DNA of 64,000 bases, from IMG/VR virus record IMGVR_UViG_3300045988_112739; one strand, given 5' to 3'. This document shows, one piece after another, positions 1 through 63,575 of this stretch. Within the stretch, counting starts at the first letter, position 1; the number at the start of each line of letters is the position of its first letter. The position numbers were made by a program, and so were the translations under genes. The notes beneath the pieces were generated by a model, which saw nothing but the letters and a program-made list of their open reading frames with translations, had not been told where the DNA came from and made no database searches. Source of the DNA: a virus.

Positions 1-1064
1 AGAACATTGGTGGGTATCTTGATGAGGGTAAGAGAAACGTAAGAGCTATGGGACTGAGAGGTGAGCGTAGCGAGGGTCTTTTCATGCCGCTTACTTCTCT
101 TGAAAAGTTCTGTGATATTTCTACTCTTAATGTTGGAGACCAGATTACCACTATAAATGGCAACGAAATTTGTTGTAAATATATTCCTAAGAGTGTTAAT
201 CGCCATAAGCCTAATAATAGTAAGAGCAGAAGATTTAAGGCTAATAAGCAGAGACTAGAGGAAAGATACCCTTTCTTTGCCGAACACATTGACACTCCTC
301 AGCTAAAGTATAATCCCGATATGTTTAAGCCCGGAGAACTTATAATAATGACAGAAAAATGCCATGGAAGCTCGCAAAGGGTTGCCAACACCTTTGTTTA
401 TAAGGATAATTTACTCTCTAAGATATTCAAGAGACCTAAGTATGAATATGTTGGAGGAACTCGCAGGCGCATTCGTAGCAAGGGAGATGTCGGATATTAC
501 GGTGATGAAGCTTTCCGAGATAAGTGGGAAGATTTCTTTAAGGGCAAGCTCCAAAAGGGCGAAACGATTTATGGAGAGATAGTCGGTTTTACTGAGAAAA
601 ATTCCCCTATTATGGGCAGAGGAGATAATACCAAGCTCAACGACAAGGATTTTGTCAAGAGATATGGCAAGACCACGACTTTCTCTTATGGCTGTGATGA
701 AGATAAGGGTGAGAATGATTTTTACATCTATCGTATAACTAAGACAGACGAAGACGGAAACGTCATTGAATATCCTTATGATTATATAAAGATAAGAGCA
801 GAGCAGATGGGAGCAAAGGTAGTTCCTGAGTTTGAAAGGTTTATTTATACTACTCATGAGGATATGATGGGAAGAGTAAATAAGTATCTTGAAGGTTGTT
901 CTACTATCGACTCTAGACACACTAGAGAGGGCATTGTATTAAGAGCGGATAGGGCAGATAGATACAAGGTAGCAAAGATAAAATCTTATGCGTTCAGCGT
1001 TCTTGAAGGTCTTATAAAGGAAAACGCAGATGCACCTGACATGGAAGAGGCACAGGAAGTATAA
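1..1064 (+). CDS. RNA ligase, Rnl2/DraRnl-like (5' end upstream of window)
   Basis: The frame is open from nt 3, so the listed ATG at 48 is internal. Nucleotidyltransferase motif I EKCHGSS (KxHG), later GEIVG and KIKS. N-terminal LRGERSEGLF resembles an OB/tRNA-binding type module. Confidence 0.55.
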   Translation, partial: NIGGYLDEGKRNVRAMGLRGERSEGLFMPLTSLEKFCDISTLNVGDQITTINGNEICCKYIPKSVNRHKPNNSKSRRFKANKQRLEERYPFFAEHIDTPQLKYNPDMFKPGELIIMTEKCHGSSQRVANTFVYKDNLLSKIFKRPKYEYVGGTRRRIRSKGDVGYYGDEAFRDKWEDFFKGKLQKGETIYGEIVGFTEKNSPIMGRGDNTKLNDKDFVKRYGKTTTFSYGCDEDKGENDFYIYRITKTDEDGNVIEYPYDYIKIRAEQMGAKVVPEFERFIYTTHEDMMGRVNKYLEGCSTIDSRHTREGIVLRADRADRYKVAKIKSYAFSVLEGLIKENADAPDMEEAQEV

Positions 1065-7211: not shown

Positions 7212-8390
7212 ATGTTGATGTCGAAGAAAATAAGACTTAAACCAACTACTGAACAGGAAATATTATTCATGAAGAGCGTAGACGTTGCAAGATGGGCTTA
7301 CAATTATCTTTTATCTGAAAAGCAAAGGGTGTATGATGAATATTTACAGAATGGAAAAAGTGGTCGCAGAGATATCAGTGAGGGGGAAGTTAGGAAGTAT
7401 ATCAATAATGTCTTAAAACCTACAACGCACACATGGCTCAAAGAAGTTAGCAACAACGTCATGAAACAAGCTGTAAAAGATGCTGACGGTGCTTACAAAA
7501 GGTTCTTTTCTGGACAGAGTGGAAAGCCAAAATTTAAATCTAAGAAAAGAAGCAAGCTATCTTTTTATGTCAATTACGAAAGCCTTTCAAGACAGCCTAA
7601 CGGTTTTCGTGGTGAGAGGATAGGTTTTGTAAAGACATCTGAACCATTACCAAAACTCAAACCTAACGAGAAATATTCTAATCCTCGCATTTCATTCGAT
7701 GGAAAATATTGGTATTTGTCAATAGGCTATAACGTTGAGGATATAGAATGTACTTTAACGGATAAGAGTTTGGGTATTGACTTAGGTATAAAGGATTTGG
7801 CTATTTGTTCTGATGGTAAAATCTTTAAAAACATCAATAAGACTAAACGCGTTAGAGAATTAAAGAAAAGACTAAAAAGAGAACAAAGAAAATTTTCTAA
7901 AATGATTAACGGTAACATAGATAAACTTACAGTTAATCACAAACCAATATACAAAAAACCCTTGGAAGAATGCAAAAACATTCAAAAACAAAAAGAAAGA
8001 ATTAAATTGATTTATCGTAAACTTACAAATATTAGAAATAATTATATTCACCAAACTACATCTGAAATAGTGAAAGCCAAACCATTTCAGATAGTCATGG
8101 AAGGTTTAAACGTTAAGCAAATGATGAAAAATAAACATCTTGCCGAAGCAATTTCTGACGAAAAGTTTTATGAATTTATAAGACAGATGAAATATAAATC
8201 TCAAAGATACGGAATCACATTCATACAGGTTGATAGGTTTTATCCATCAAGCAAAATGTGTTCGCGTTGTGGTAATATTAAGAGAGATTTAAAGCTCTCA
8301 GATAGAACTTATAAATGTGATGTTTGTGGTCTGGTAATTGATAGAGATTATAATGCTAGTATAAACTTAGCAAACTATAAAGCTGTGTAG
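7212..8390 (+). CDS. tnpB: TnpB RNA-guided nuclease (OrfB_IS605 with Zn ribbon)
   Basis: RuvC motifs GIDLGIKDL, VMEGLNVKQM and DRDYNASINL. Zn ribbon CSRCG...CDVCG. N-terminal RLKPTTEQ. Confidence 0.85.
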   Translation: MLMSKKIRLKPTTEQEILFMKSVDVARWAYNYLLSEKQRVYDEYLQNGKSGRRDISEGEVRKYINNVLKPTTHTWLKEVSNNVMKQAVKDADGAYKRFFSGQSGKPKFKSKKRSKLSFYVNYESLSRQPNGFRGERIGFVKTSEPLPKLKPNEKYSNPRISFDGKYWYLSIGYNVEDIECTLTDKSLGIDLGIKDLAICSDGKIFKNINKTKRVRELKKRLKREQRKFSKMINGNIDKLTVNHKPIYKKPLEECKNIQKQKERIKLIYRKLTNIRNNYIHQTTSEIVKAKPFQIVMEGLNVKQMMKNKHLAEAISDEKFYEFIRQMKYKSQRYGITFIQVDRFYPSSKMCSRCGNIKRDLKLSDRTYKCDVCGLVIDRDYNASINLANYKAV

Positions 8391-8588
8391 ATTCATCTGA
8401 AAGAATTACATAGTTATGTACCTGTCGCTGACGGGGAATTTACGTCTATGGAGTGTTATATCAAACATGAGTAGTCAATGACGAAAACAGACATGATGAA
8501 ATAGAAAGTTTGTATCGTGAGGGCAAACACAGCATAGGTATATACAGATTACAATAGATTTGCATATATTTATCTCAGCGGCGCTATA
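8391..8588 (+). ncRNA. candidate omega/right-end RNA scaffold of TnpB (extent uncertain, may begin inside tnpB)
   Basis: About 200 nt without an ORF between the tnpB stop and the element end. This inference rests on the known arrangement of TnpB loci. Confidence 0.35.
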
Positions 8589-12961: not shown

Positions 12962-12990
12962 TTGACAAAATGAGACAGTTGTGCTATAAT
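12962..12990 (+). promoter_or_regulatory. sigma70-type promoter P4
   Basis: aatgaCTTGACAaaa, 17-nt spacer, TGcTATAAT. Confidence 0.75.
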
Positions 12991-13012
12991 AAATGTAGCA
13001 CAACTATTTTTA
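12978..13012 (+). terminator. intrinsic terminator-like hairpin overlapping the -10 of P4
   Basis: gttgtgcta-9 nt-tagcacaac followed by tattttta. The left arm includes the -10 region. Confidence 0.45.
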
Positions 13013-13026
13013 TAAGGAGTGATTTT

Positions 13027-14659
13027 GTGAGCAATTATTTTATATACCACTTACACAGTGACTATAGTAGTTGCACTACAAATATTGATAGTGTTACTAA
13101 GATAGATATGTATATTAATAAAGCTAAAGAGTGTGGAATGACGGCGTTAGCTTTCTCGGAGCATGGAAATATTCTGAATTGGTATGAGAAAAAGAGCAAA
13201 ATCGAAAAAGCAGGAATGAAGTATGTTCATGCAATGGAAGCTTATGTCACTGAAACCCTTGACGAAGCTATAAGAGATAATTACCATTTTGTCCTAATTG
13301 CAAAAAACTATGATGGGTTTCTGGAATTAAATAGGCTTAACACCAAATCATATAATAGACACGATAACTCATTCTACTATCGTCCAAGAATTTCGCTTGA
13401 CGATATAATGAACACTAGCGATAACATAATTATCACCACAGCTTGTCTTGCCGGACTGTTGAACAGTCAAAAAGATGAATTAAAAGAAAAATTTGTTAAT
13501 TGGGCAATAACCCATAAGGATAGAGTTTTTTTAGAGATACAGCATCATAATGTATCTGAACAAATTTCCTATAACAAAAATTTGTATATTCTGTCCCAAA
13601 AAACAGGACTTAGACTTATAACTGGAACTGATACTCACAGCATAGATGAGCCTCATGCAGAAGCCAGAGTGATTATGCAAAAAGCAAAAAAAGTATATTT
13701 TGATAACGAAGATGGTTGGGATTTAACTTTTAAAACTTACGATGAACTTGTAGAGAGTTATCGTAAGCAAAATAGTTTGCCAATGGATGTAGTTTTTGAA
13801 GCCATCAGGACAACTAAGATTATTGAGGATATGATAGAGCCTTTTGAGCTTGATATGTCTACAAAATATCCTAAGTTGTATGATAATTCTCTTGAAGTAT
13901 TCCGTAAGATGGTTTATGATTCTATTGACACTCACCCATATGCGCTTAAATTTCATACTAAGGAAGAGATTGTAAAGCGCATTGAAGAAGAACTTCCTGT
14001 TTATGAAAAAACACACATGATAGACTTTATGTTGTTCCAGAAATTTGTGCGAGATTGGGAACACGAAAACAACATATATGTTGGTGCAGGTAGAGGTAGT
14101 GTGTCTGGGTCTTATATAGCTTATCTATTAGGCATAACAGAAATGGATAGTATAAGATTTGACCTTAACTTCTTTAGGTTCGCTAATGAATATCGTGTTA
14201 GTAATTGTGATATTGATAGTGATTATTACGACCCCGACAGAGATAAAACGAGAAACTTTCTTTTAACTTGTGATAAAATAAAGTCCGCTGAAATAGCCGC
14301 TTTTGGTACTATTAAATTAAGAGGCGCTATAAGAGATGTAGGTAGAGCTTTAGAACTGTCGCTTGATGAAGTCACAGAAATTTGTGATAAACTTGAAGAG
14401 GTTGAAATTAATGGCAAAAAAGTTGAAATAGCAGGAGAGGCATTAAGAAAGAAATATCCAGAACTTTTTAAGTATGTTGATTTGGTTCAAGATGTGATTG
14501 TTTCTGTAGGTACTCACCCAGCAGGAGTTCTCTGTGCTAGTAGACCTATAGATGAAGAAATAGGTTTATTTAGTTTGTCTACAACAGAACACATGGTTTC
14601 TTGTAATGATATGTATGGTCTTGATGCCTGCTGGTGGACGAAACTTGATTGTTTAGGGT
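13027..14659 (+). CDS. dnaE: DNA polymerase III alpha subunit, exon 1
   Basis: GTG 13027 lies 8 nt after aaggag. The track start 12970 falls inside promoter P4. PHP motif YHLHSDYS. Ends ...KLDCLG within the conserved K.DxLGL motif. Confidence 0.8.
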
Positions 14660-15839
14660 AAACTATCTTGCCCTAGTAAAAACGGGTTATATGCTGGAAA
14701 AACCTTAGAGCTTTTATGCACTTACAGTATTTTGTATTTATTGTAATCGAAACAGTTAAAGGATTGGTTAATCAGCAGGCACGATAAGGTCAGCCTCAAC
14801 GACTATGGGAATATCCCAGTCATACATAAGTGATTATGTATGATAACCCCGTGAAAATGATATAGTCTGAACACTATAGAAATATAGTGAGATAAGCAGA
14901 AATGACTTATCATCTAGTAATTGTCGCATTAATATGAAAGGTGGTGATAAAGATTTCTAAGAAGAAGATTACAAAAGAAATGTTTGTAAATGAACTTGTA
15001 AGGTTGTATAATGAGTTTGGCAAAGTTAATATAAAAATATGGAATGAACACACTATATACAAAGGTTCTTGCTTTAATTGGTATTTGCACCAATATGGAA
15101 AGATTAGGACTTTATTAAACGAAGTTGGGATTACATACATAAACTACAATGAACTTACTGAGGAGCAAGTTCTTGAAAAAGCAAAGTGTATTTATCAAGA
15201 ATATGGATATATAAATAAAACCTTATGTGAACAAAACGGTTTATGGAGTTCGCCAGTTAGACATGTTTTTGGCAATTACAATAATTTATTTAAAGCTATT
15301 AATGCACCTATCAATATGTCTAGAGGTGTAACTAAAGACGAGCTTGTCAGCGATATCAAAGAGTTCATACAAAAATATCGGAGTTATTCAGCCGTTTTAT
15401 ATAGAAAATATGGGAAATATAGTTGTGCGATTGTTAATAAATATGGCGGTTGGGAAAATATACTTAATGAACTAGGGATGCGCTCTACAAGAAATAGTCA
15501 GCCAGAAAACTTTATAGAAACCTTTTTTGAACAAAATCAAGTTGAATTTGAAATACATAAAGGCTTTGAATGGCTTATATCTCCAGATGGGTATAAAATG
15601 TATGTAGACTTCTTTTTAACTAAATATAATTTGGTTATAGAGTATGACGGAGAGCAACATTATAAAATGGTAAAATATTTCCATAAAACACAAGAAAATT
15701 TTGAAAAGTGTTGTGAGCGAGACCGTCAAAAAGCTAAATTGTTAGAGGCACATGGTATAAAAATTTATAGAATAATATATAGCGACAATATATTATTTAA
15801 ACTTCAAGAATTATTAGAATTACTAGATTAACAAATTTG
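14660..15839 (+). mobile_element. group I intron with homing endonuclease ORF in dnaE
   Basis: P1 GGGUa/uGCCC (14656..14660 with 14669..14673). P10 UAUCU (14664..14668) pairs with exon AGAUA (15841..15845). caacgacta at 14797 and gatatagtc at 14859. Terminal G at 15839. The join gives LDCLG-LDNVGII in frame. Confidence 0.75.
14941..15831 (+). CDS. intron-encoded homing endonuclease, PD-(D/E)XK (Vsr/DUF559-like) with N-terminal homing-endonuclease-associated repeats
   Basis: C-terminal VDFFLTKYNLVIEYDGEQH...RDRQK. Four N-terminal repeats of the YGxxxxLLNEVG type. Located after the P7' core, in a peripheral loop. Confidence 0.65.
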   Translation: MVIKISKKKITKEMFVNELVRLYNEFGKVNIKIWNEHTIYKGSCFNWYLHQYGKIRTLLNEVGITYINYNELTEEQVLEKAKCIYQEYGYINKTLCEQNGLWSSPVRHVFGNYNNLFKAINAPINMSRGVTKDELVSDIKEFIQKYRSYSAVLYRKYGKYSCAIVNKYGGWENILNELGMRSTRNSQPENFIETFFEQNQVEFEIHKGFEWLISPDGYKMYVDFFLTKYNLVIEYDGEQHYKMVKYFHKTQENFEKCCERDRQKAKLLEAHGIKIYRIIYSDNILFKLQELLELLD

Positions 15840-17389
15840 TAGATAATGTCGGTATTATCAATAAAACGTGTGAACTTGCGGGTATAGACCGTATTAATCC
15901 TGATAACATTGATTTGGAAGACTGGGAAGTTTGGGACGATATTAGACAGGACACTACAGCGGTATTTCAGATGGAGTCTCCATATGCCGCTCAGACAATG
16001 AAACAAATATTTTCTGATAGTACCATAGCTAAAATAAGAAAAGCTATTCCTAATATCAAGATGTTGAAGTTAATGAGTTATGCAAACGCTCTTATCAGAC
16101 CCTGTGGCGCTTCTGTTAGAGAAGATTCTGTCAATGGTATAATTAAAAAAACTGGCATAAACGATATTGACGATTTGCTTGCACCAGAGCTAGGTAATTG
16201 TATTATTCAAGAGGACATCATGCTCTTCTTGATGAAATTCTGTGGTTTTGATTTGCCGAAGGCAGATTATGCTAGGAAATGCATTGCCAAGAAGCGCGGC
16301 ACAGAACAGTTAATGCCAGAGATTGAAGAAGGCTTTAATAGCAACGCAAAAGTAAAGTATAATTTATCAAATGAAAAAGCTGATGAAATTATAAAGCCTG
16401 TATTAAAATGCATATTAGATGCCACTAGATATGCGTTTAGTTGGAATCACTCTGATGCTTACAGCTTTATAGGATATGCTTGTGGATATCTTAGACATTA
16501 TTATCCTCTGGAATTCCTTACAACTTGTCTTAATGTATGGCAAGATAAAACGGAGAAAACCGCAATGGTTACTAGTAAAATAGCCGAAAGAGGATATAAG
16601 ATTGCTAATGCAAAATTTAGAATGTCTAGGGCAGAATATTTTTGTGATAAATCAACAGGCATAATTTATAAAGGAATAAAGTCTATTAAATACCTCAATG
16701 AAAATGTAGCAGAAATTCTATATTCTTTCAAGGATAATAAATATAATTCCTTTGTAGAACTGCTTTGCGATATCAGTAAAACGGCTATAAATTCAAGACA
16801 GGTAGGGGTTTTAATAGATATAGATTTCTTTGAAGAATTTGGAAATGCTAAACAATTAGCATTAATCTACAATATATTCAATATGTTTAAGCAAGGAAAT
16901 GCTAAACTCATCAAAAAGGAGAGGGTAGCTAATAACCCCATTCTCAATAATATAGTGGCAAGATATTCTAAAGAAACAGCAACAAACTATACACAGCTTG
17001 ATTGTAAAAATATATTATCAGAAGCAGAACAGTATATTATGTGTAGTATAACTGATGATTACCCTATAGGATATAAGATAAAAGTTCGCAAGGAATATTT
17101 AGGATATATTGATTACAAAACTAATAAGCCAGAAGATAGACCTAAAATTCTTATTCAAAGTTTAAAAAAGTGTATAGGTAAATTCGGTAAGGATGCTGGA
17201 AAGCCGTGGTGCTATATGTTTGATGGCTATAGCTTAGGCAGTGGTAAAGTGTCTACTTACAGTATTTTTGCTAAACAGTTTGAGAAAAATTCTTTTGCCG
17301 TTGATGATGTCATTTACATAGATGAATGGCATAGAAACAATAAAGGATATTTCTATATTGATAAATACAAAATATTGCCAAAAATTTAA
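15840..17389 (+). CDS. dnaE: DNA polymerase III alpha subunit, exon 2
   Basis: The frame is open from 15833 and has no proper start. Contains TTAVFQMES (the GVFQ.ES motif of Pol III alpha). Confidence 0.8.
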
Positions 17390-44737: not shown

Positions 44738-44770
44738 GTATCACCACTGTTTACTGCACAGTGGTGATAC
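44738..44770 (-). terminator. intrinsic terminator overlapping the tape measure stop codon
   Basis: Minus-sense GTATCACCACTGT-gcagtaa-ACAGTGGTGATAC followed by TTTTAATATTT. Confidence 0.6.
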
Positions 44771-47700
44771 CATTTTTGTTTTGTATCTTAGTAACAATTT
44801 CAGACCAGAAACTTTCAGCGTCAATGTTTTTGTCAAACTTAAATTCCATATCACCTGTAAAGGTATAGTTGTTTTTAACTTCTCCTGTGTTAGTAACGTT
44901 TGTTATCATATTAGTAGTTGGCTTAGTTTCTGCGAAAGATGTAGGTTTAAGTATTTCTGCATATTTGTCAAGGCTAGTCGCCAATGTGGTTACAGAAGTG
45001 CCTAATGCAGTCATAATAGACTTCCAGTCAAAAGCAAATCCGCTTTTCCCATTAGTAGCATAGCCACCAGAAATAAGATTTGCTTTTGCTTTGTTAAGTT
45101 CTTTTTGACTTTGAGCGTCCTCAAATCCTAAATTGATGTCAACCGCTTTACCATAACGACTACGGAAAGCTTGTTGTTCTTTATCACTTAGATTAAGTAA
45201 ATCTTTAGCACTTAATGTACTAGCATTTACTCCACGATATTGTGCAAGCCAACTTAAAGCAGATTTGACATCTCTTTGATTTTGTATTGTTTCAGGAATG
45301 TTACTGAAACTCTCTCCGTATTTCTCTAACCATTCTTTACTATCTTCTAAATCTTGTTTTCTATTTTCTTCAAGTTGTTGGTCATATTCCTGTTGTGCTT
45401 TCTTAATATCTTTCTTATTAGTAGTCCACTCAAATTGACCTGTTTCAGCATTGTATTCACGAACACTTCTTTGTGTCTTAGCTTTATTAAGAGCCTCAAG
45501 TTTTTCTTGTAAAGCAATTTGTCTTTGTTGAGCTTCATTCTTTTTATCAAGCAAATCTATCTCTTTATCTAAAGCATCAATTTCAAGCTGTGCCGCTGCA
45601 ACAATACCGTTGGCAATATCTTCATAGTATTCTACTTGTTTAGATAGTACAGTAGATATATCGGATAAAGCGTCCTCAACGGAATAAACAGATTTTTCTA
45701 TAGTATCTACTATACCATCAGCAGTATCTTCTGCTACTTCCCCTGTTGCTTCTAGCAAGTCTTTTATTGCACTAATAGAATCAACAACCTGTTGACCGCC
45801 AATTATTAGAGATGGATTCTTGGCAATTGTTTCATACCACGCTGTAGTGTCTAATGTGTTTAAATCAATAAAATCACTTATTGTTAATTTGCCCGTCAAT
45901 GCTTGCGCTTCCGTTAGCTTATTAAAATTGTTTAGTATTTCCTCTTTTGCCGCTGTAACTGTAGCAAAATTCTTTAAATCTATATGATACTGTTTGTTGA
46001 ATTTGTCCACTAATTCTTTATTACCTAAGATGGCGTTTTTATAAAAATCGCTACTATAGCTTAATTTTTCAATTTGTGCATTTTTGTAATTTGTTTTATC
46101 TTGTTCATATAACTCTTTAAATTTAGAAATAAGTTCTTGTCTAGTCATTTCTTTACGAAGATACCTGTCAATATATTCTGTTATAGCAGGATAAGCGGAT
46201 TTCATAGAATCGAGAGTATCTAATGTAATTTGACTGCTCTCTTGTCCTAATTCATGCATTAGACTATAAGCATCTTTCATACGAGATGTTACAACGTCTA
46301 ATCGAGAATCAAGCTCCTCGTCAAGATTGACGGAGGCTGTAGAAGACCCTTGGTCAAACTTATTTGCGAACTCTTCGATAATTTTAGGATAATCTTTTAA
46401 GTATTCTTGACATTCTTTTAGTATTTCTATATACCAGCTTGGAGCATTAGACATTGCTCCTCTCAGCTCTGGCTTTAAGTTGTTGTCCTCGTCAAAAAGC
46501 TCGGCAAGTTGATATTTTTCGGCATCGGCTCGTGTTTTAGAATATTTATTTTCTATTGCAGACTTTGCATCAATGTAATTAGTGTAATTTTTCAAATCAA
46601 TTCCGTATTTGTTTTTAAATTCTTCCACAAAGCTGGAATTCTCGTTAAGCCAACTAGAATAATACTCATCTGTTTTCATATACTTCTTTTGCTGATAATC
46701 ATAAAAATTATCAATATCGTTATTATAGAACTGCTTAAATGCTTTTAATAACTCATCGTTATCAATCATACCCAAACGATATTTCTCAACAATAGAAGCC
46801 ATACCAGAATACTGGTCTACCATACTACTAAGAATATCTTCGCTTATAGTACTATCTCCATATCCAGCAACTTCCGCTATAAGTTCACCAGCAGATTTTA
46901 TAGCTGTGACATATTCGTTGGCAGTAGTTTTAACACCATCAACAGCATTGCTAACAATCTGTTTTTCAAGTTCTAATAGTTTGTTTTGGTTTGTTATTTC
47001 TAATCTTTGTTCATCAGTAATATCTTTTTGTTTTACCATTGTGGCATTATTAATATTCAACTGCTCATCTAAGGTGTCTAACATAGACTGTACATAATCG
47101 TTACGAACAGCCTCTATTTTTGCAATATTATCCAATCCACCCTGAGTAAGATTTGTTATATCTACACCAGCAGTTTTTAACTCAAACAGTTCCTCTATAT
47201 CAGGAGTTGTCCCCTCTGAAAGAGCTTTTATTGCATTGTTAAGTTTTTCTATGTTGTCTACTGCGTTAGTAATTTGTTTTGCATCTGTAGGGAATCCGGC
47301 AATTAAATCCGTTGCTGTAATCGTTTCGGTTTTTTGATAAGTATATCCTAATAGTTCAAGGGAATCCACTATTTCAGAGATACTCATATCAATATCGTTT
47401 TTGTCTTTTAAACTTTCTCTAATTCCACCAAGTAAATCAGTAATTTCTTTATCTTGTGTTTGCTTAATATCTGTAGCAAACATACCTTTTATTTTTTCAG
47501 ACAACCCGCTACTTTCTACTGCTTTATCAATTAGTATATTAGCTTGTGCTTTTTGTTGAGATTTTTCAAATTCTTGTCCTGCTTCTGTAATACTTCTGCC
47601 AACAAGTTCTGCAATTCTTTCGTTGCTAGTTAATCCTGTTGCAGTAGATAATGTTTGCAATAAATTATCTGCAACGGTCTTTAAATCATTGTATGCTTTC

Positions 47701-49430
47701 TCATCAACTTCTCCAGAACCTGCCAAAGTGTTCATTTGAGAAGTAATTTCTGTATACTGGTCTAAAACTTCCCTTACAGTTTGACCCGCATAATCTCCCT
47801 CTGTAAACGTTTTAGACAACGAGTCTATCGCTATATTTTTTGCATTGTCAAGTATTTGTTTGTTTTGCTGATATTCAGTATCTTTTTCTATTGCTTTGAT
47901 TTCTTGTGAAAGCACGTCTCTAAAACTTTGATAGGCTTCTTGGTTTTCTTTCGTAATTTCTCCACTAGAAATTTTCTCGTCAATAATTGTTAATAATTGT
48001 TTCATATTTTCAACAGTTTGAAAATATGATTCTGACCCAAACATAAGAGCCTCGTTTGCCAAATAGACCTTGCCACCAAATCCGCTAATTTCTGATTGTA
48101 AATCATTTATTACATCAAAATATTTTCTGGCAGCACCACTGTCTCCAATTTGTGTGACTGCTCCGTGAAGCTTACCAGTGGTAATGTCTCCGTAATTCCA
48201 AAAGCCGATGCTCTTTTCGTAGTCAAAAGCCGTTGCTACTTCATCGGAAATATCAGTCCACGTTTCACTCGCACGTTGCTGTGAAATTTGTTTAAGTGTA
48301 GCCAAAGTTGTTTCAAGTTTGCCATTTACTACATCAATTCCGTCTGCTTCTGAACCGTAAGTCTCAACTATTTGGTCTCTACTAGTTAATAATTCTTCTG
48401 CCTTTTCGTTTTTAAGAGACGTATCAGATATAGAATCATATTCTTTTTTGAGGTTTTTATATTTTTCTATAAGCTCATCTATAGAAGAAGATGTATCATT
48501 ATAGGTGTTTATGGTTTCAATCGCGTTATCACGAGCCTGTTCTGCGGCTTGACGAGCACTCATAATGGCTGTCGCTATGCCTGAAATTGCAATAGATACA
48601 ATTCCCAAAACTAAATTCAACGTTGACATAGCCGTTGTCAATCCTTGTGTCGTAAATTGCATTGTCTTTTGTTTTGCTATTGCCCCAGCTAAACTTATAG
48701 TTTCCTGCTGGTTGAGTTGTATATTATTTTTTTTTGCCATTGCAAAAAGTATTGCCGCTATTTTACCTTGCTTTTGACTTTCTGTTAAACTGTTGTTTGA
48801 TATTATAGCCTGCATATTAGCAGCAGTTTGCGCATCTGTGTTTAACAACAGTTGTGCTTGTGCAGTTGTCAACCCCATATCAACTAATTTTTGAGCTTTC
48901 TTTTCTGCATTTAAAGCCTTGCTGCTTACAATAACTGCAATCTGTTGTTTTTCGTACGCACTTAATGTTTCCCCGTTTTTAGAGATTATTGTATCTAATG
49001 TAGCCCAGCTACTTTTTAATCCTGTAATTGTTTGTCTTAAATTTTTTGTAGGAAGGACTACGTTGTTTAACAAACCTTTAAATCCTTTGCTTAAACTAGA
49101 TACTAACGCAGGTATTCCTTTAAGAGCCTTAAAAGCAAGAAAAAACCCTAAAACATTTTGCAATACAGGTGCTTTTGCTGATAAAGCATCTAATACACTA
49201 AGCATTCCACTCAATAATGAAACTCCAATTTTAATAGTTCCACTTTGGTTAAGACCCTGTATAAATTGTTCCCATTGTACAGTTAATTCGTTTATTTTAG
49301 CTTCAAGGCTACTCATATAGTGAGTATACTTCTGAGCAGATGTACCAGAAGCTTCCATTGTTTTGTTTGTATATTCAAGAACTTTGTCGTAGTTCTGCAT
49401 TACTGCAATAAAGGTATTTCTTTGATGTAC
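44751..49430 (-). CDS. tail tape measure protein, exon 3
   Basis: Begins VHQRNTFIAVMQNYDK.., the usual continuation after the ..IAG motif of TP901-type TMPs. The track start MKVTEL (49448) is interpreted as intron 3' sequence. Confidence 0.7.
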   Translation of the reverse strand, partial: VHQRNTFIAVMQNYDKVLEYTNKTMEASGTSAQKYTHYMSSLEAKINELTVQWEQFIQGLNQSGTIKIGVSLLSGMLSVLDALSAKAPVLQNVLGFFLAFKALKGIPALVSSLSKGFKGLLNNVVLPTKNLRQTITGLKSSWATLDTIISKNGETLSAYEKQQIAVIVSSKALNAEKKAQKLVDMGLTTAQAQLLLNTDAQTAANMQAIISNNSLTESQKQGKIAAILFAMAKKNNIQLNQQETISLAGAIAKQKTMQFTTQGLTTAMSTLNLVLGIVSIAISGIATAIMSARQAAEQARDNAIETINTYNDTSSSIDELIEKYKNLKKEYDSISDTSLKNEKAEELLTSRDQIVETYGSEADGIDVVNGKLETTLATLKQISQQRASETWTDISDEVATAFDYEKSIGFWNYGDITTGKLHGAVTQIGDSGAARKYFDVINDLQSEISGFGGKVYLANEALMFGSESYFQTVENMKQLLTIIDEKISSGEITKENQEAYQSFRDVLSQEIKAIEKDTEYQQNKQILDNAKNIAIDSLSKTFTEGDYAGQTVREVLDQYTEITSQMNTLAGSGEVDEKAYNDLKTVADNLLQTLSTATGLTSNERIAELVGRSITEAGQEFEKSQQKAQANILIDKAVESSGLSEKIKGMFATDIKQTQDKEITDLLGGIRESLKDKNDIDMSISEIVDSLELLGYTYQKTETITATDLIAGFPTDAKQITNAVDNIEKLNNAIKALSEGTTPDIEELFELKTAGVDITNLTQGGLDNIAKIEAVRNDYVQSMLDTLDEQLNINNATMVKQKDITDEQRLEITNQNKLLELEKQIVSNAVDGVKTTANEYVTAIKSAGELIAEVAGYGDSTISEDILSSMVDQYSGMASIVEKYRLGMIDNDELLKAFKQFYNNDIDNFYDYQQKKYMKTDEYYSSWLNENSSFVEEFKNKYGIDLKNYTNYIDAKSAIENKYSKTRADAEKYQLAELFDEDNNLKPELRGAMSNAPSWYIEILKECQEYLKDYPKIIEEFANKFDQGSSTASVNLDEELDSRLDVVTSRMKDAYSLMHELGQESSQITLDTLDSMKSAYPAITEYIDRYLRKEMTRQELISKFKELYEQDKTNYKNAQIEKLSYSSDFYKNAILGNKELVDKFNKQYHIDLKNFATVTAAKEEILNNFNKLTEAQALTGKLTISDFIDLNTLDTTAWYETIAKNPSLIIGGQQVVDSISAIKDLLEATGEVAEDTADGIVDTIEKSVYSVEDALSDISTVLSKQVEYYEDIANGIVAAAQLEIDALDKEIDLLDKKNEAQQRQIALQEKLEALNKAKTQRSVREYNAETGQFEWTTNKKDIKKAQQEYDQQLEENRKQDLEDSKEWLEKYGESFSNIPETIQNQRDVKSALSWLAQYRGVNASTLSAKDLLNLSDKEQQAFRSRYGKAVDINLGFEDAQSQKELNKAKANLISGGYATNGKSGFAFDWKSIMTALGTSVTTLATSLDKYAEILKPTSFAETKPTTNMITNVTNTGEVKNNYTFTGDMEFKFDKNIDAESFWSEIVTKIQNKNGITTVQ

Positions 49431-49720
49431 CAATTCTGTTACTTTCACCTAAAAGGTTACTGACTATGTATTAAACATAGCGGTCGAAGTTCTTCCAAAA
49501 GTGTCTTTACACTTGACCTCAACTCTATATATTTCTATATAGTTCAGACTGTATTTTCATCTTTACAGATGTTATCCTCTGCGGTCGTTACGATGAGATT
49601 ATAAATAATCTTTATCTCGGTATTGTCTACAGCATTATCTGTTTAGAGTTTCACCGATATAGGATAATTCTGATATCTAAAAGATATCCATATATTTCTA
49701 TATGTTCGGGCATACATTTT
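49431..49720 (-). ncRNA. group I intron B in the tape measure gene (290 nt, no ORF)
   Basis: P1 GGGUa/uGCCC (49724..49720 with 49712..49708). P10 AUGUAU (49717..49712) pairs with exon GUACAU (49430..49425). The P7'/P9 segment auacagucugaacuauauagaaauauauag is nearly identical to the dnaE intron. Terminal G at 49431. Confidence 0.65.
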
Positions 49721-50282
49721 ACCCGCTATTGCAGTCGCAATTTGTGCCTGTTCTACGGTATCAAATTCATTCCATCTACGCCCAACATCATCTAGAACAT
49801 CTTCAAGATTTCTAAATTCTGTTGCACTATTTCTAAGAGTAATATTATAACGTTTAAGAACCTTTTCGGAATCGTTAATAGCTTCTCCCTCGTCATCAAT
49901 ACTCTTACCAGCTTTTACATTCTGCAAACGAGAGAACATTGACTTAAATGCCTGACCTACTGTTTCTGCTGACAATCTAGTGGTTTCACTTGCTGTAGTG
50001 AGCATACCCACCATTTTATCAAAGCTAACGCCAGCAGCACTAGCAAATGAAGCAGAATACTGGAATGCAGTAGCAAGTTCTTCTGTACTTGTTGCCGCAA
50101 TAAGGTCGGCATTAACAAGTTTATCTACTACTTCTGCCGCATCGTCTGCTTCTAATTTATATGAGTTTAAAATTGCAGTTAATTTTTCTGTAGCTTCGCT
50201 TGATTCCATTGCACCAAGCGTTGCCATCATAGTAGATGCTTTAAGTAATTTAGCAGTTTCCTCTGCTGTCTTACCCTGTCTC
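49721..50282 (-). CDS. tail tape measure protein, exon 2 (TP901-type core)
   Basis: RQGKTAEETAKLL...ATSTEELATAFQYSASFASAAGVS...TVEQAQIATAIAG. It has no start of its own. The track ORF 49643..50230 runs into intron B. Confidence 0.7.
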
Positions 50283-50622
50283 CTGTTATATTAACTAGAG
50301 TTCGTCACACTCTAATCTTATAGTTTCCTATAAGCATAGACTATATCTTCAATCTAAAAAAGATTGTCCCCCACTTCGATTTAAGGGGTTCTCACCCACG
50401 CCATATGACGATTGCGCCCTACTTCTATTGTCCACAAGGACTTACGAATAGTCGTTGAACCTTTCTCCTAATAGGAGACTTGGTTGCGGATTGTCCAATA
50501 TTGATACTTTTTACTATACCTTAATAATTAGTTAAGCCATTATAATATTGCTATTATAATTTAGTATATCAATCTCTAAGGAGTTTCCCGCAGTTAAAGG
50601 GATTTATAATGACCTAATTAAA
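50283..50622 (-). ncRNA. group I intron C in the tape measure gene (about 340 nt, no ORF)
   Basis: Minus-sense AAGAUAUAGUC (50349..50339), CAACGACUA (50458..50450) and GGACAAUCCGCA (50496..50485). P1 GGCUu/AGGUC has a U.G pair. The join gives SGSVEW-L-RQGKTAEE in frame. Boundaries are good to a few nt. Confidence 0.65.
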
Positions 50623-53429
50623 AGCCATTCAACAGACCCAGAACTCACAATTTCTGTTGTAGTTCCAAGTTCTTTTGCAAGTTCAGAATAACTAGCTAAA
50701 GTTTTCCTAACACTAGTATCAGTCTGATTAGTTACCATTTGTACTTCTGTCATGGTCTTATCGAATTCTTTAGTTTTTTCGATAACGTTTGACAAGCCTT
50801 GTCTCATTTCCATGAACAGTCTATTAAATATATTAAAACTAAAAGCAACAGCCGCAGTACGTTGGAAACTTGCTTTTAATCTTTCTAACAGTGTCAGTTG
50901 CTTACTATTACTCTGATTACTACGAGTTACATTATCTGCCATTTTAGCATTGGCTTCCGCTACCATATTTGTATAAGTTGAAGTTTTAGCTAATGCATCA
51001 TTGTCTTTAAGTAGTGCATTATACTGCGCTTGTAACCTATCAACAACTGCTTGTTGCTGATTTACAGTAGCATCATTATATGCTCTTGCTTTATACTCTT
51101 GAAGTGTAGATTGTGCTTTCTTCAAATTAGTATAAGCAGTAATCATTTTATTAAGGGTTGCCAAATCACTTTCTTGCTTTGCTTTTATAGTATCGTCTTT
51201 TATAGTGGCGTTAGCTTCTGCTACTACGGTTCTTAACTTTTCATATTGTTCTCTTGTAATACCTAAAGTGGCATTGAAACTCTTCAAAGACATTTGTCCA
51301 CTTGAAAAATCAATTAAATTTCCAAGTCCACTAGTGCCAATTATAGCAGACATCTTATCTTGTACATTTTGATAAGCGGCAGTGTATATACCTTTGTCGC
51401 CCTTGCCAGCCTTATTAGTAAGTTTGCCTTGTTCTCTGCGTAATTCTACATATTCTTGCAAAGATTTAGTTGCTTTAGAATAAACTTCGTTTTCTTGCTT
51501 TTGACGTTGAATATCTTTTTCTTTACTATTTGCTACTCTCTGTAATGTCTGATTATATTCAATATAATTGTTTAGTAATTCTCTTACTCTGTTTGTTAAT
51601 AACTGAGTGTTTTCAGCACTTCTTAATTCTGTATTATATTCAGATAGTTTGGCTTGTGCGATTTTTTGATACTCTGTGGCTTCTTCTATATTTCCTTTTT
51701 GCATAGCAGAACGAGATTTTTGCCAAGCCTGATACCTTTCATTTTCTAATCTTGTTAATTTTGTCACTAAGTTTTGCTGTTGTACGTTTGTATCGCTAGA
51801 CGTAATTCTATTATATGTATCTGTTGGTATGCGACCATTATAAGATTCTATCTGAGTATTTACTTGATTAAGCCTGTTCTGTGTAGTTACAAATTTTTGA
51901 CTACCCGTTGTCTGTCCAGAAAGTCTACTTTCTAATTTAGCCCTTTCTGATACTAAATTTGTAAGCTCCTGCTCTAATTGAATTTGTTCTCTTATAACGT
52001 TATCTTCGTTTGCTCTTGTTTGAATAGCCCGTTGAATGTTTTGATTACGTTCCTGTAATTGCCGATTAAGAAAAGAAATACTTTCTGGGTCTTCGGCGTT
52101 CCCGTAACCGCTAAAAATAGGGTCTCTACCGCCAGCCACCCTACCAGCATTTAATGCGCTTTTCTGAATATTGTTTATTTCAAGCTGATATCTTATTTTG
52201 TTTTGTAAAAGATTATCTTCGTTGGCTTCTGCCTCGTATAATTTTAATTTCAAATCATACTCTTCTGTGAGTAGTGTTTTATATCTTTCTACCTGGCTGA
52301 CCTCATCCACATACGTTCTGCTCAAACTAGATGTCCCACCACGGCTTAACATCATATCATTAAGTGCTTTAGGGTTTACATTTTGTGGCGTTTTCCCAAA
52401 TTTATTTGTAATTGTCTGTATATCCTCAGGAGATAAAGTTATATTTGCACTTTCTCGTCCGCTTATTCTTAATCTAGCGTTTGCTTTTACTAAATTGCCT
52501 GTATCGTCAAATACGCCAGTAATCTGCCTAAACAAATTGCTATAGTTTTTTTTAAATTCGTCAAACCTTTTTCTTGCGTTGATAATTGCGGCATCCGCTT
52601 TTTGAGACGCATCTGCTGATATTTTTAATCCCTCTGCTGTATTTCTATTAAATTCAGACAATTTGGCTCTAGGGTCTTTACTTGCTATAGAGGAATTGTC
52701 ACTTTCCCCATTATTGCCGCCGCCAGACGGTGAATTTGTAGATGGATTGCCAGCGTTTTGAGCCGCACCACTTAAAGCATTAGCCGCGTTGCTAACCGCT
52801 TGTGCCGCAGTATTTAATGTGGTAGAAGCCCCACTTATACTTTGGGAAGTGTTTCCTAAATTAGCATTAGCTGTACCTAAAGCAGAAGCACTATTACCTA
52901 TATTAGTAGCACTAGTATTTAAACTAGAAGAAGCAGAATTAAGGTTCTGAACAGTGGTGTTAAGATTATCAACAGTCTGCATTAATGTTTTATTTAGAGC
53001 GTCTGCGTTGGTTGATGTACTCTTCTTATCAGCAGGAGTTGTTTTTGTCTTTTGAGCTGTAATTACTTTTTCCACTTCTTTAGTAATTGTGGCTAGGTCA
53101 GAAGACTTATATCCTGTGCCGCCTATCGTAGCTCTTCCAGCTTTTGTGTTATAAGTAAACTTTAGACTTTGGTCTGTAATCTGCCTATTGATATCCGTAA
53201 CGAATTCTGCAAAGTTCTGATAGTCTTTCTTAGATTGTTCAATCGCCTTTTGTATTGGTTCTCTAAACAGACTTTCTCCTATATTTTTAGTTCCAGAATA
53301 TTTATTTAAAGCATCAAAAAGCTTCATAATATCATTAGGAAACTTTGATACTAAATTCTGAAATTGCTGTTCAAATGTACTTGTATCTAATCCTAATTGA
53401 ACCTTGGCAATTTCTATTTTTTCTGCCAT
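50623..53429 (-). CDS. tail tape measure protein, exon 1
   Basis: Coiled-coil, Ser/Asn/Ala-rich N-terminal part ending ..ELAKELGTTTEIVSSGSVEW. The listed C-terminal LLIRSL-stop is read-through into the intron. Confidence 0.7.
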
Positions 53430-54832: not shown

Positions 54833-55870
54833 TTACAAATCGCCAAGTTGACTTTGCTTAACTTCTTTAATTCCGTTTTCATCAAAATAATCAGCAAAAC
54901 TATCCATAGCTTCGTTATCATCGTAAATCGAAATCATCGCACCGCCACTAGCTTTATTCCAACCTATAAGTTCAATTATTACAGGGTCAGGCAGTTTTTT
55001 AGCCCTTAACTGAGAAATTAAGAAGTGTCTAAGGCTATGGAAATAGAAATCGCAACCCAGTACACTCTCAATTGTTCTAGCCCAGACACTAGCAGTGCTA
55101 ATTTGTGCCTGACGATAACCCTCTGGGGTTCTGGAAACAAACAGCCACTCGCTATCTATGCCTAACCGCTTACGCTCTTCCATCCATAAATCATAATATC
55201 TCTTAAACTGTTGTATAAAAACATATTTGTACAATAGTTTGCCACGACTACCTCTACCCTTAGTGGTTATTTTCTCTGGCGTTTTATATAGACAACCAAA
55301 AACAATATTGTCATCTGTGAACCAATTAGCCTTAAACCTTAATAACTCTGCTTTTCTAGCGCCACTAGCACAAGCCAAAGCCATAAAGCAAGCAGCTTGA
55401 TATTTGCCAAGCTCAACTAATTTTTCAAGACAAGTATCTACTTGCTCTTGTGTTAATACGGTCTTTTCTCTTACTGGTTCAATAGCCACCGTTTCTATCT
55501 TCTTGACATTATTACGATATCCCTCGTAATCTTCGTCTAATATATTTTCTATGAAATTACTAAACGAACTTATAATTGCTCTGACTGTTTTTAACCTATT
55601 AGGAGAGGCATCAAGCTCGTTTGTCATATAACTAAAGAAGCGAACAAACTCTCTCTTCTTAATATCTACAAACACTTTGTTTGCATTGTGTTCTACGTTC
55701 CAACAGAAAAACAATTTAAGCACCGCTGTATACTGATAAACAGTTTGTGCAGATTTATCAGTACTTATCTTATACTCCCTAAACTCATTCAGCAAATCTT
55801 TGTTTTCTTGGTCTACTTGCGCCCAAAGTTCTTCTGAAAAAGTGGAAGTTCTTTTTGTAGTTCTACTCAT
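54833..55870 (-). CDS. tyrosine recombinase / integrase (XerC/D-like)
   Basis: ASGARKAELLRF (Arg box), HSLRHFLIS (HxxR) and GGAMISIYDD (catalytic Tyr region). Confidence 0.75.
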   Translation of the reverse strand: MSRTTKRTSTFSEELWAQVDQENKDLLNEFREYKISTDKSAQTVYQYTAVLKLFFCWNVEHNANKVFVDIKKREFVRFFSYMTNELDASPNRLKTVRAIISSFSNFIENILDEDYEGYRNNVKKIETVAIEPVREKTVLTQEQVDTCLEKLVELGKYQAACFMALACASGARKAELLRFKANWFTDDNIVFGCLYKTPEKITTKGRGSRGKLLYKYVFIQQFKRYYDLWMEERKRLGIDSEWLFVSRTPEGYRQAQISTASVWARTIESVLGCDFYFHSLRHFLISQLRAKKLPDPVIIELIGWNKASGGAMISIYDDNEAMDSFADYFDENGIKEVKQSQLGDL

Positions 55871-58140: not shown

Positions 58141-58797
58141 TCAGGTTGTCTCGTCCTCAGTATATACCTTGAAGGTATAAAGAGTTCTGTCAAGACAGCC
58201 CTTAACAAATTCAAGACCAAGGTTCTGTACAACAGGCTCACCATCAGCAGAAACGTCAAAGTTCCAGTTACCGTCAACCTGTGCCTGACCCTCAATCTCG
58301 CAAGGGAATAACTCACCAGTACATACGTCCTTTGCAATACCATAAGCGGTAGCAAGAACAACCGGAGGAATACCGTCAGAGTTTACGGTGATAGTCTGTG
58401 CATTAGTATCAGACTTGAAGCTATATGCACAAGCAATCATGTCTCCAGCGGTGGGAGCATCTGTGCCAAAAGTAATCTCCTTAGTACCAGAGTCATAAGA
58501 GAAAGTCTCTGTTCCAGTAGCAGTAGCAGCTTGTTTATAAGTCTTAGAATAAGTGCCATCAGCACCTACAATATAAACAAATTTGATTTCGCTACCAGCA
58601 GTACCAGTAGCAGTAAACTTAGTCTTGTACTTACCATCACTACCTGCCTCAATTACATCATAATATGTAATAGGGGTAGAACCAGTAACAACCTCAGTAC
58701 CATTCTGAATAGCCAGTACCTCAGTATTAAATGTAGCAACAGTTACATTCATAGTGGCTCTACGAGAGTGTGAGAAGCCACCGCCGATATATACGTC
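58141..58797 (-). CDS. probable major tail (tube) protein, exon 3
   Basis: The frame is open from 58797 (DVYIGGGFSHSRRAT) before the listed Met. Beta-rich, Thr/Gly-rich sequence. The function call is positional. Confidence 0.55.
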   Translation of the reverse strand, partial: DVYIGGGFSHSRRATMNVTVATFNTEVLAIQNGTEVVTGSTPITYYDVIEAGSDGKYKTKFTATGTAGSEIKFVYIVGADGTYSKTYKQAATATGTETFSYDSGTKEITFGTDAPTAGDMIACAYSFKSDTNAQTITVNSDGIPPVVLATAYGIAKDVCTGELFPCEIEGQAQVDGNWNFDVSADGEPVVQNLGLEFVKGCLDRTLYTFKVYTEDETT

Positions 58798-59165
58798 CTT
58801 GGTATTTATATGTATTCGCTAAATACATACCATACAACAAATGTATGCTCATGCTTTCACATGAGAGTAGGTCATATCACAGACTTATTAAAAGTCTTTC
58901 CCCATTTCACAGTCGCTTGACTGTTACGCACCGCCGTGCTGACCGTCGAACCTTACTTGAATAATTTATTCAAGTCTTGGCGGCTGATTGTCCATTATTA
59001 CAGTACTTAGGCTTGCACCATATACTATCCACATTATTCTTTCTACTTTCGTCACATTCACGCTTGTTAATTAAAACTACGTTGTAGTTAATGTGGCTCT
59101 TAGGAGTTTCCAGCCATTAAAGGAATTTTTCGATACTTTTCACAAAGTAAAGGGAACGTTATATT
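58798..59165 (-). ncRNA. group I intron E2 (368 nt, no ORF)
   Basis: P1 GGAAU/GUUCC with a terminal U.G pair. GGCUGGAAACUCCUAAGAG...GGACAAUCAGCC (P4/P5 type). Variant P7 GGUCA/UGACC. Terminal G at 58798. Confidence 0.6.
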
Positions 59166-59186
59166 ATTCCTGCACCCAATATCTTC
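59166..59186 (-). CDS. probable major tail protein, 21-nt micro-exon (EDIGCRN)
   Basis: This is the only segment left between the 3' end of intron E1 and the 5' end of intron E2. It keeps exons 1 and 3 in frame. Confidence 0.5.
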
Positions 59187-59544
59187 CAATAGGTCGTTAA
59201 TCTATTGCGTTTTTAAAACAGCTCTATATTTCTATAGACGTTGAGACTATATCTTCATACATTTTATGTATGCACTCCATTTCGATTTAAAGGGTTCTCA
59301 CCTACGCACTTGCGCCCTACTCTTATTGCAATTAACCCATTGCTAAAAAAGATAGTCGTTGAACCTTTCTCCTAATAGGAGACTTGGTTGCGGATTATCC
59401 AATACCAATACTTATTACCATACCTTAGTAGTTAATTAAGCCATTACTATATTACTATAATAACTTGGTATATTGGTCTCTAAGGAGTTTCCCGCAATTA
59501 AAAGTGTTTTCAAATACCAATCAGTATTTGGAGCAGTATTATTT
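59187..59544 (-). ncRNA. group I intron E1 (358 nt, no ORF)
   Basis: P1 GGGUa/uGCUC. Minus-sense AAGAUAUAGUC (59255..59245), CAACGACUA (59362..59354) and GCGGGAAACUCCUUAGAG. P9 cuauagaaauauag. Terminal G at 59187. Confidence 0.65.
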
Positions 59545-59694
59545 ACCCGTGGGATATACCATTTCCATTGTATTTTCAAGAGAAGTTGTCTTACAGTTAG
59601 TAAGATATGCAATAATGCTCTTGTCAACAGGCTTTCTTAAAAGAATCTCAAATGCCTGCTGCATAGAGAACTGTTTAGGTGTAGCTAAAGCCAT
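59545..59694 (-). CDS. probable major tail protein, exon 1
   Basis: ATG 59694 follows ggag. MALATPKQFSMQQAFEILL...EMVYPTG, 50 codons ending in GGU. Confidence 0.55.
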
Positions 59695-62927: not shown

Positions 62928-63263
62928 CTTTTCATTACTTTTATATTTAGCTTATCATATAAAAGACCGTTTGGTTTTCTCATAATTTCTTATGAGCATA
63001 GACTATATCTTTACCCTGTTACGGGTATTCCCCACTTCGGAACGCTTGTTCCTAACGGTATCTCAACCGATAGTCGTTGAGGGTTTTCCTTTTCGGAACT
63101 TCCCTGCTGATTGTCCAATCTTATAACTTTTCAAACATTTACATATAAGCGTATTTCATCTTTCTGCTTTAGTATATAAGCTCTAAGGAGTTTCCAGCAT
63201 TTCAAGGAATTTATGTATAAACTTCCGTATTATACAAGACTTTAAACAACGTTGTGTTCTCAA
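62928..63263 (-). ncRNA. group I intron F (336 nt, no ORF)
   Basis: P1 GAUuu/AAGUC with a U.G pair at the splice site. Minus-sense AAGAUAUAGUC (63011..63001) and CAACGACUA (63080..63072). P9 cucauaagaaauuaugag. Terminal G at 62928. Exons are 312 + 147 nt, in frame. Confidence 0.6.
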
Positions 63264-63575
63264 ATCATTATCGTTAAGATTTAATTCCATTTGTACAATA
63301 TCATTGATATTGTATTCTACCCAAGAAATAACCATAAGTTCAGAGAGAATATTCTTCTCTTTAATACTAAGAGTAAAATTAAACTCTTTTGAGGTAGTAT
63401 CTACATCTTCTATATTAGGACAATTATGGAATTTGGCTATAGCCTTTATAAGAAATGTCTCTAGTAAATCTTCACCAAGTTCAAAATTTTCCTTAAATAA
63501 ATTCTTTAAGTGATAATCCTGTATAGAGTTTAAAAATATGTGATAAATCTCACTAAATTCTGTATTAGCACTCAC
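63264..63575 (-). CDS. head-tail connector-like protein, exon 1
   Basis: ATG 63575, ending ..MELNLNDND. The listed tail LRTQRCLKSC.. is intron read-through. Confidence 0.55.

Follow-up and report, generated by a model that had tools for sequence, protein, structure and literature searches.

The minus strand of the virus record IMGVR_UViG_3300045988_112739 carries three consecutive open reading frames (ORFs) in head-to-tail order (53429..50604, 50230..49643 and 49448..44751). Are they three genes, or the exons of a single one? We addressed this question in a 64-kb window at the start of a metagenomic scaffold of 77.5 kb. An initial annotation, made from the letters of the sequence without database searches, had regarded the three ORFs as pieces of one TP901-type tape measure protein (TMP), interrupted by two ORF-less group I introns. 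From the evidence below, we infer with considerable confidence that both introns splice and that a single TMP results, the main doubt being the activity of the second intron.

Removal of 50622..50283 (intron A) and 49720..49431 (intron B) joins the three ORFs into one in-frame ORF of 2682 amino acids (aa) with no internal stop, built from exons of 2807, 562 and 4680 nucleotides (nt), or 8049 nt in all. The coordinates given in the initial annotation proved correct, and the junction peptides read as quoted there, ..SGSVEW-L-RQGKTAEE.. at the A site and ..ATAIAG-VHQRNTF.. at the B site. At the RNA level, the predicted spliced junctions are ..GAAUGGCU|GAGACAGG.. for A (50623|50282) and ..AGCGGGU|GUACAUCA.. 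for B (49721|49430). Without splicing, the polypeptides would end in ..EWLLIRSL (intron A) or run into intron B as ..IAGKMYARTY... The unspliced ORF of exon 1 continues into intron A and ends at 50604, and the GTG start of the third ORF (49448) falls within intron B. Neither intron contains an ORF of more than 28 aa, in agreement with their description as ORF-less.

The protein evidence for a single gene comes from profile searches and from homologues. For the former we used a core of 450 aa (residues 851-1300 of the spliced protein), in which the two junctions fall at positions 86 and 273. TIGR01760 (tape_meas_TP901, curated cut-off 28.8) matched the spliced core with 137.8 bits in a single stretch over both junctions (core 24-364, profile 3-334 of 349). 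PF10145 matched it end to end with 108.6 bits (profile 2-201 of 201), a full coverage that was obtained only after splicing. Unspliced, the middle ORF reached 89.2 bits with TIGR01760, for profile positions 86-243 only, and 93.5 bits with PF10145, and the outer two ORFs had no match at all to a TMP hidden Markov model. The last ~60 aa of exon 1 join the TIGR01760 match only once spliced. Judged by the TIGR01760 and PF10145 cut-offs and by the continuity of the matches, the spliced core is a member of the TP901 family, as had been proposed.

A database search identified uninterrupted homologues that pass through both junctions, five of them (P0001, P0002, P0003, P0005 and P0010) at ~40-50% identity and more distant ones (P0048, P0050, P0052 and P0054) at 24-29% identity. 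The homologue alignment has no gap at either junction. Junction 1 (EWL|RQG) adjoins the best-conserved columns of the alignment (R87, Q88 and G89), and junction 2 lies within the motif IATAIAG|xxQxN (IAG|VHQRN in the window). Exon 3, which opens with VHQRNTFIAVMQNYDK, aligns ungapped at its start with the uninterrupted homologues. TMPs of cultured phages that reach the core region are also continuous over the junctions, the best among those listed being only 35% identical. Megablast of the TMP locus against GenBank phages returned only a 49-nt match in an intron core, and hence no close cultured relative.

Intron A was recognized by Rfam model RF00028 (Intron_gpI, gathering score 50 bits) above its threshold, with 73.8 bits at 50317..50659 and over the full length of the model (1-253). 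In its P1, the exon sequence AAUGGCU (50629..50623) and U1 of the intron pair with the guide AGGUCAUU (50615..50608). By inspection, AAUGGCU stands opposite GGUCAUU, and U50623·G50614 forms the wobble pair that marks the 5' splice site. A UAA six codons into intron A (intron nt 17-19, 50606..50604) is the earliest stop in frame. The boundaries can be shifted by 1 nt without any change to the protein (CU|U...CAG|G or CUU|...CAGG|), and the U·G rule favours the coordinates of the initial annotation over the shifted ones. In the Rfam alignment, intron A has an insertion of ~74 nt between P7 and P3', and 49 nt of this inserted stretch (50375..50423) are 92% identical to the bnrdF intron region of SPbeta/phi3T. 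Judged from the Rfam alignment and the likeness to bnrdF, this architecture suggests an IA2-like intron with a putative P7.1/P7.2-type insertion.

Intron B can be laid out as P1, P2, P2.1 and P3-P9, followed by a 3' extension of ~95 nt (P9.1 and beyond). Its P1 is formed by the exon sequence CGGGU (49725..49721) and GCCCG (49711..49707), with U49721·G49711 at the splice site. P1 covaries at this site: in the relatives L048 and L049 the exon reads CUGGU and the guide GCCAG, a compensatory change with respect to CGGGU/GCCCG in the window. Directly 5' of the guide, AUGUAU (intron nt 4-9, 49717..49712) pairs at six of six positions, one of them G·U, with the GUACAU that opens exon 3. This P10, which the initial annotation had put forward as independent support for the 3' splice site, is therefore confirmed; hexamers fitting its guide make up 0.3% of the positions in the TMP locus. 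Between 150 and 800 nt downstream of the 5' splice site there are two G-preceded P10 candidates, of which the proposed one alone keeps the frame.

The minimum free energy fold of the 290-nt intron B contains P2, P2.1, P3, P4, P5/P5a, P6/P6a, P8, P9 and further 3' hairpins. P3 consists of UUAUCC/GGAUAA, P2 and P9 carry GAAA loops, and P8 carries a GUAA loop. The fold has a z-score of -3.6, and none of 200 shuffled sequences folded equally well. For a comparison between introns, we collected ten B-type introns from a P4/P5-motif scan of viral contigs (19 loci) and from the TMP relatives, with endonuclease ORFs removed. MAFFT placed the 3' strand of the window P3 one column out of register, so helices were instead extracted by script from anchors, a procedure that differs from formal pair counting. 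P3 had ten different sequences in the ten introns and was paired in all of them (nine at 6/6, one at 5/6), and P6 occurred in four variants, all 3/3 paired. Compensatory variants were also seen in P7 (GACUA/UAGUC, GAUCA/UGAUC and GACUG/CAGUC). P8 and P9 were always hairpins, of differing sequence.

Intron A is polymorphic among close relatives, since some of them have it and others do not. The TMP of the IMG/VR contig L003 (93% identical to the TMP of the window) is continuous through junction 1, with exons 1 and 2 fused. Its empty A site, ..GAGTGGCT|CAGGCAGGG.. (in a longer reading ..GAGTGGCT|CAGGCAGGGCAAA..), aligns ungapped with the spliced join of the window. L052 (89% identity) also lacks intron A, and has a different intron 36 codons downstream. 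By contrast, other relatives stop at junction 1, as the window does: P0026 (98% identity), P0051 (67%) and possibly P0043. Over the exons as a whole, the window and L003 share 92% identity, but the value falls to 68% in the 60-nt bin at site A, and 33 mismatches lie between positions -40 and +90 of the site. This dip is probably a co-conversion tract left by homing.

We propose that the three ORFs are exons of one gene, which would encode a TP901-family TMP of 2682 aa and roughly 300 kDa in an uncultured SPbeta-like phage. They would be transcribed as a single pre-mRNA with two ORF-less group I introns, each of which would fold into a ribozyme core and excise itself. In the first step, an external guanosine would attack after the U of the P1 U·G pair (U50623 in A, U49721 in B). 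In the second step, the freed 5' exon would attack after the terminal G (G50283 and G49431, respectively), guided in B by the 6-bp P10. After ligation, the TMP core would be intact again where it is most conserved (EWL|RQG and IAG|VHQRN), and ribosomes on unspliced RNA would come to a stop after 6 codons of A or 25 codons of B. Both introns would be selfish insertions, probably received from endonuclease-bearing relatives through homing or else with the aid of an endonuclease acting in trans, and would persist because splicing makes them harmless. We infer this route of acquisition, like the self-splicing itself, from the comparison of sequences.

Several observations weigh against this proposal. 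Intron A has no recognisable P10, and its nucleotide-exact boundaries are set by the U·G rule alone. Intron B reached only 38.0 bits with RF00028 (E 1.1e-7 in a 1.7-kb search, full-length model match), less than the gathering score, and its group I membership thus rests on the structural evidence. The initial assignment of both introns to group I therefore stands for A on its Rfam score, and for B on comparative structure together with a significant, if sub-threshold, Rfam match. The copy of B in L003, although near-identical, escaped a larger, multi-locus Rfam search, a miss that is attributed to search speed filters and that still marks the match as weak. P7, the helix that forms the guanosine-binding site, has four of five pairs in the window and in L003 (GACCG/CAGUC, with an internal C·A mismatch), versus five of five in relatives (GACUG/CAGUC or GACUA/UAGUC). 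The first in-frame stop in B comes late, at intron nt 76-78 (49645..49643), past P3 and P4, so that translating ribosomes could disturb folding. In addition, no allele without intron B was found among close relatives, and the empty B site is seen only in homologues of at most 50% identity.

The low score, the P7 mismatch and the late stop, together with the lack of an endonuclease ORF in B, are what one would expect if A splices and B is a decaying relic without efficient self-splicing (in the intron life-cycle model, ORF loss comes before decay). In that event, either the TMP would end after exon 2, or full-length protein would require a splicing factor of the host or phage, or the genome would be defective. 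We regard such a relic as unlikely. The window and L003 share 98.6% identity in intron B, as compared with 92% in the flanking exons, and of the four substitutions in the intron the two that were inspected preserve base pairs (in P6a G·U replaces A-U, and in P9.1 G-C replaces G·U). The other core helices are intact and thermodynamically favoured, and P1 and P10 suit exactly this site. The rest of the tail module is also intact in the window, and a TMP is essential for tail assembly. Yet more improbable is the absence of any splicing, with three polypeptides forming a split tape measure and spacers that only resemble introns. Gene callers do annotate three genes, the outer two unnamed, and the TMP core of some relatives is indeed divided otherwise, by a 1-nt frame change. 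However, the breaks in the window fall within the most conserved motifs of one domain, and the sole start of the third ORF is a GTG inside an intron. Moreover, the spacers fit the group I model, with the U·G pair and the terminal G at exactly the positions that restore the frame, and exons 1 and 2 are fused in the 93% identical relative. An assembly artefact, in which the metagenome assembler inserted a repeated intron-like sequence at the wrong place, might be suspected from the 77% identity of intron A to tail tube intron 1 of the same contig, and from the low-coverage relative L078, which is possibly chimeric across such repeats. Four contigs nevertheless have an identical exon-intron layout, at least two of them from independent assemblies of different samples (ENA ERZ28579284 and Logan ERR209469), which argues against an artefact. 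Intron B is present in the IMG/VR contig L003 as well, and the guide of each intron is specific to its own TMP exon, so that we give this explanation hardly any weight. Splicing of both introns from a single TMP gene remains the reading that we prefer.

The proposed arrangement can be compared with several known systems. SPbeta carries group I introns in bnrdE and bnrdF, with the same type of insertion between P7 and P3' as in intron A. The similarity to intron A (the 49 nt at 92% identity, by the SPBc2 bnrdF annotation) is restricted to the intron core, and the intron interrupts a structural gene here and a ribonucleotide reductase gene there. The type of phage is nevertheless alike, as Pfam matches to YomU_Tube, YomV_2nd and YomN mark the phage of the window as SPbeta-like. 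Those TMPs of cultured SPbeta-like phages that matched (for example SPbetaL5) are continuous over both junctions.

A close parallel concerns prophages of the Bacillus cereus group, in whose TMP genes Tourasse and Kolsto (2008) described the group I introns TMP-IVS1, IVS2, IVS3a and IVS3b at three sites (PMC2504315). Two or three introns (IA1 and IA2) occur per gene, in frame and with early stops, and some lack a complete endonuclease gene. Related introns were found at different sites with adapted P1 and P10, different introns were found at one site, and a tail tube intron was described in the same kind of phage (PMC2504315). Multiple TMP introns, early stops, missing endonucleases, retargeting, different introns at a shared site and the tube intron are all repeated here. 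Differences are that the present lineage is uncultured and SPbeta-like, with a TMP at most 35% identical to that of any cultured phage, and that about eight TMP-core sites are occupied among its relatives versus three in the B. cereus group. Multiple ORF-less group I introns in TMP genes have thus been described since 2008 (PMC2504315), and it is the lineage, not the pattern, that is new. In Vibrio phage ICP1, the TMP gene is interrupted by an intron with an HNH endonuclease gene, splicing was shown by RNA-seq and RT-PCR, and the TMP gene was called a frequently interrupted gene (Barth et al., 2023, PMC10448857). An interrupted TMP is restored by splicing in ICP1, and would be so in the window. 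The ICP1 intron carries an endonuclease gene, whereas the two introns of the window do not, and the phages are unrelated. A group I intron in a siphovirus TMP gene is also listed for Lactobacillus delbrueckii phage JCL1032 (Table 3 of PMC2504315), a likeness that goes as far as this table entry.

Insertion of introns into the TMP core is not confined to the two sites of the window. Among the relatives sampled, about eight sites are found within the same 190-aa part of the core, with up to three introns per gene (Table 1). At site B, L049 and L051 have a 1330-nt intron with an HNH-repeat ORF, and L050 has the same intron with a sequence gap inside and no ORF called. An ORF in the equivalent place is cut by the contig end in L048, and in L079 a LAGLIDADG ORF directly follows a B-like 5' half. 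The ORF of L048 and L049 is located within the loop of P6, a place taken in the window by a small hairpin. As the site-B introns of relatives carry endonuclease ORFs, intron B is the ORF-less form, either ancestral or derived, of an endonuclease-carrying intron family.

Table 1. Positions of exons, introns and intron elements in the window, and intron sites in the TMP core of the window and its relatives.
Feature	Position	Strand	Details
TMP exon 1	50623..53429	minus	codons 1-935 plus 2 nt
TMP exon 2	49721..50282	minus	562 nt, central PhageMin_Tail / TP901 core
TMP exon 3	44751..49430	minus	1559 codons plus stop
Intron A	50283..50622	minus	340 nt, no ORF, group I, ends in G50283
Intron A P1	50608..50629	minus	read directly from sequence
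Intron B	49431..49720	minus	290 nt, no ORF, group I, ends in G49431
Intron B P1 and P10 guide	49707..49725	minus	read from sequence
Intron B P10, 3'-exon half	49425..49430	minus	GUACAU
Tail tube intron 1	59222..59570	minus	Rfam 73.2 bits
Tail tube intron 2	58848..59175	minus	Rfam 33.9 bits, E 1.2e-6
Further intron	62979..63257	minus	Rfam 83 bits, 1.5-kb search; follows ORF 63183..63575 (phrog_3853, unknown function)
TMP core intron site	core ~81 (tentative)		L078
TMP core intron site	core 86		window
TMP core intron site	core 122		L052
TMP core intron site	core 139		L076
TMP core intron site	core 158-161		L044, L079
TMP core intron site	core 196-201		L079, L042
TMP core intron site	core 219-222		L038, L081, L044, L076
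TMP core intron site	core 273		window, L003, L048, L049-51, L079

B-type introns occur at core ~200, 220 and 273, with the guide of each copy apparently retargeted. It is conceivable, although we would sooner doubt than assert it, that the TMP core of this uncultured SPbeta-like group is an unusually dense landing zone for group I introns, in which two intron lineages hop between sites and between tail genes of a single genome, their ORF-less copies being mobilised either in trans, by endonucleases that sister introns encode, or by reverse splicing. If this were true, the group would offer a natural system to study how endonuclease-free introns retarget.

Individual relatives illustrate the diversity of arrangements. 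L079 (4333-6890) has introns at core 161, 196 and 273; a 286-aa ORF and a LAGLIDADG ORF go with the second and third of these. L044 (4369-5518) has two ORF-less introns, both over the Rfam threshold. In L078 (930-2063; exon 1 93% identical), ..GTGAGTGCGGGT is followed by an A-like intron that has a matching guide of its own, GCUCGC, and begins 15 nt upstream of site A. Next on this contig come a copy of the two tube-gene introns, again 46 nt apart, and a third intron-like element. The repeat copy and the coverage of only 3x suggest that L078 may be chimeric, and we have kept only its 5' junction, as a tentative site; alternatively, it may reflect a real recombination between introns. For the same reasons, we dropped an early interpretation of L078 as a site followed by three tandem introns.

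Not every truncated TMP homologue is an intron case. An assumption to that effect was dropped for the group ending in ..STIRRI(F/I)* near core 195, which results from a 1-nt frame change with overlapping ORFs and was accordingly taken off the list of intron sites. What divides the TMP core in this group is one additional nucleotide, which is conserved (L080:4380-4425 and L041:4500-4545). The group is large, with P0020 on 22 contigs and ~12 protein clusters that end in RRII, RRSL or RRIF. At the split, the sequence reads ..AGT ACA ATA C GGA GAA TC(T/A) TTT AAA..; the zero frame stops after STIRRI(F/I), and the +1 frame goes on with GESFKTIFARMSNV. A programmed +1 frameshift at AUA-CGG is a candidate explanation, as is a TMP truly made in two pieces.

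Recognition of the introns affects how such phages are annotated. Many of the 470-750 aa "TMP" proteins of this group in databases are, as read from their sequences, exon fragments with translated intron tails. An example is the tail ..FNCGK.LR.., translated from the conserved AAUUGCGGGAAA; further fragments in the protein database can be told by tails of the type ..NCGK.LR... As TMP length commonly serves to estimate tail length, recognized introns change the estimate, in the present case from a 195-aa domain protein to a 2682-aa ruler. Knowledge of group I introns themselves is unchanged by the locus. It does add a phage lineage, so far from metagenomes only, with at least five introns in structural genes, and a clear pair of intron-plus and intron-minus alleles with a local dip in flanking exon identity. 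The initial annotation had mentioned neither the further introns of the window, nor the sub-threshold score and P7 mismatch of B, nor the multi-intron TMPs of the literature.

At least three further group I introns are present in the window: the tail tube gene contains two, and another is found still farther upstream (Table 1). The tube introns lie in tandem, ~46 nt apart; exon 1 of the tube gene starts with the ATG at 59693, and its C-terminal ORF (58141..58752) is the one with the YomU_Tube match. A whole-window Rfam run at the gathering threshold missed the 83-bit intron at 62979..63257, indicating that such runs under-count introns, and multi-locus Rfam searches lose sub-threshold introns. 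As to the origin of the phage, some relatives at least come from human gut metagenomes. A scan of species-representative genomes gave six matches only, all in metagenome bins and of inconsistent taxonomy, and no host can therefore be named.

Another split gene encodes a DNA polymerase III alpha subunit (DnaE-type) on the plus strand (12970..17389). The first piece (12970..14661) has the PHP and NTPase domains, the latter to the end of the profile, and the second (15914..17389) has the finger domain from profile position 29 and HHH. Between them lies a 296-aa ORF (14941..15831) with no Pfam match. The intron at 62979 matches 14688..14872 in an nhmmer search (E 2.8e-8), although Rfam gave no match in the region of the split polymerase. 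The split is probably due to a putative endonuclease-bearing intron, a reading suggested by nhmmer and unconfirmed by Rfam.

Two further genes were also noted in the window. A gene similar to tyrosine recombinases and integrases (54833..55870, minus strand; phrog_1, PF00589) occupies a central position among the tail genes, three genes upstream of the TMP gene, and an integrase-like gene is placed alike in the relatives L079 and L081. On the plus strand, a TnpB-type gene (7212..8390; OrfB_IS605 plus Cas12f1-like TNB) is directly followed by a RAGATH-18 RNA (8445..8507, 60.3 bits), and 7212..8507 resembles an IS605-family element that resides, together with its guide RNA, in the genome of the phage.

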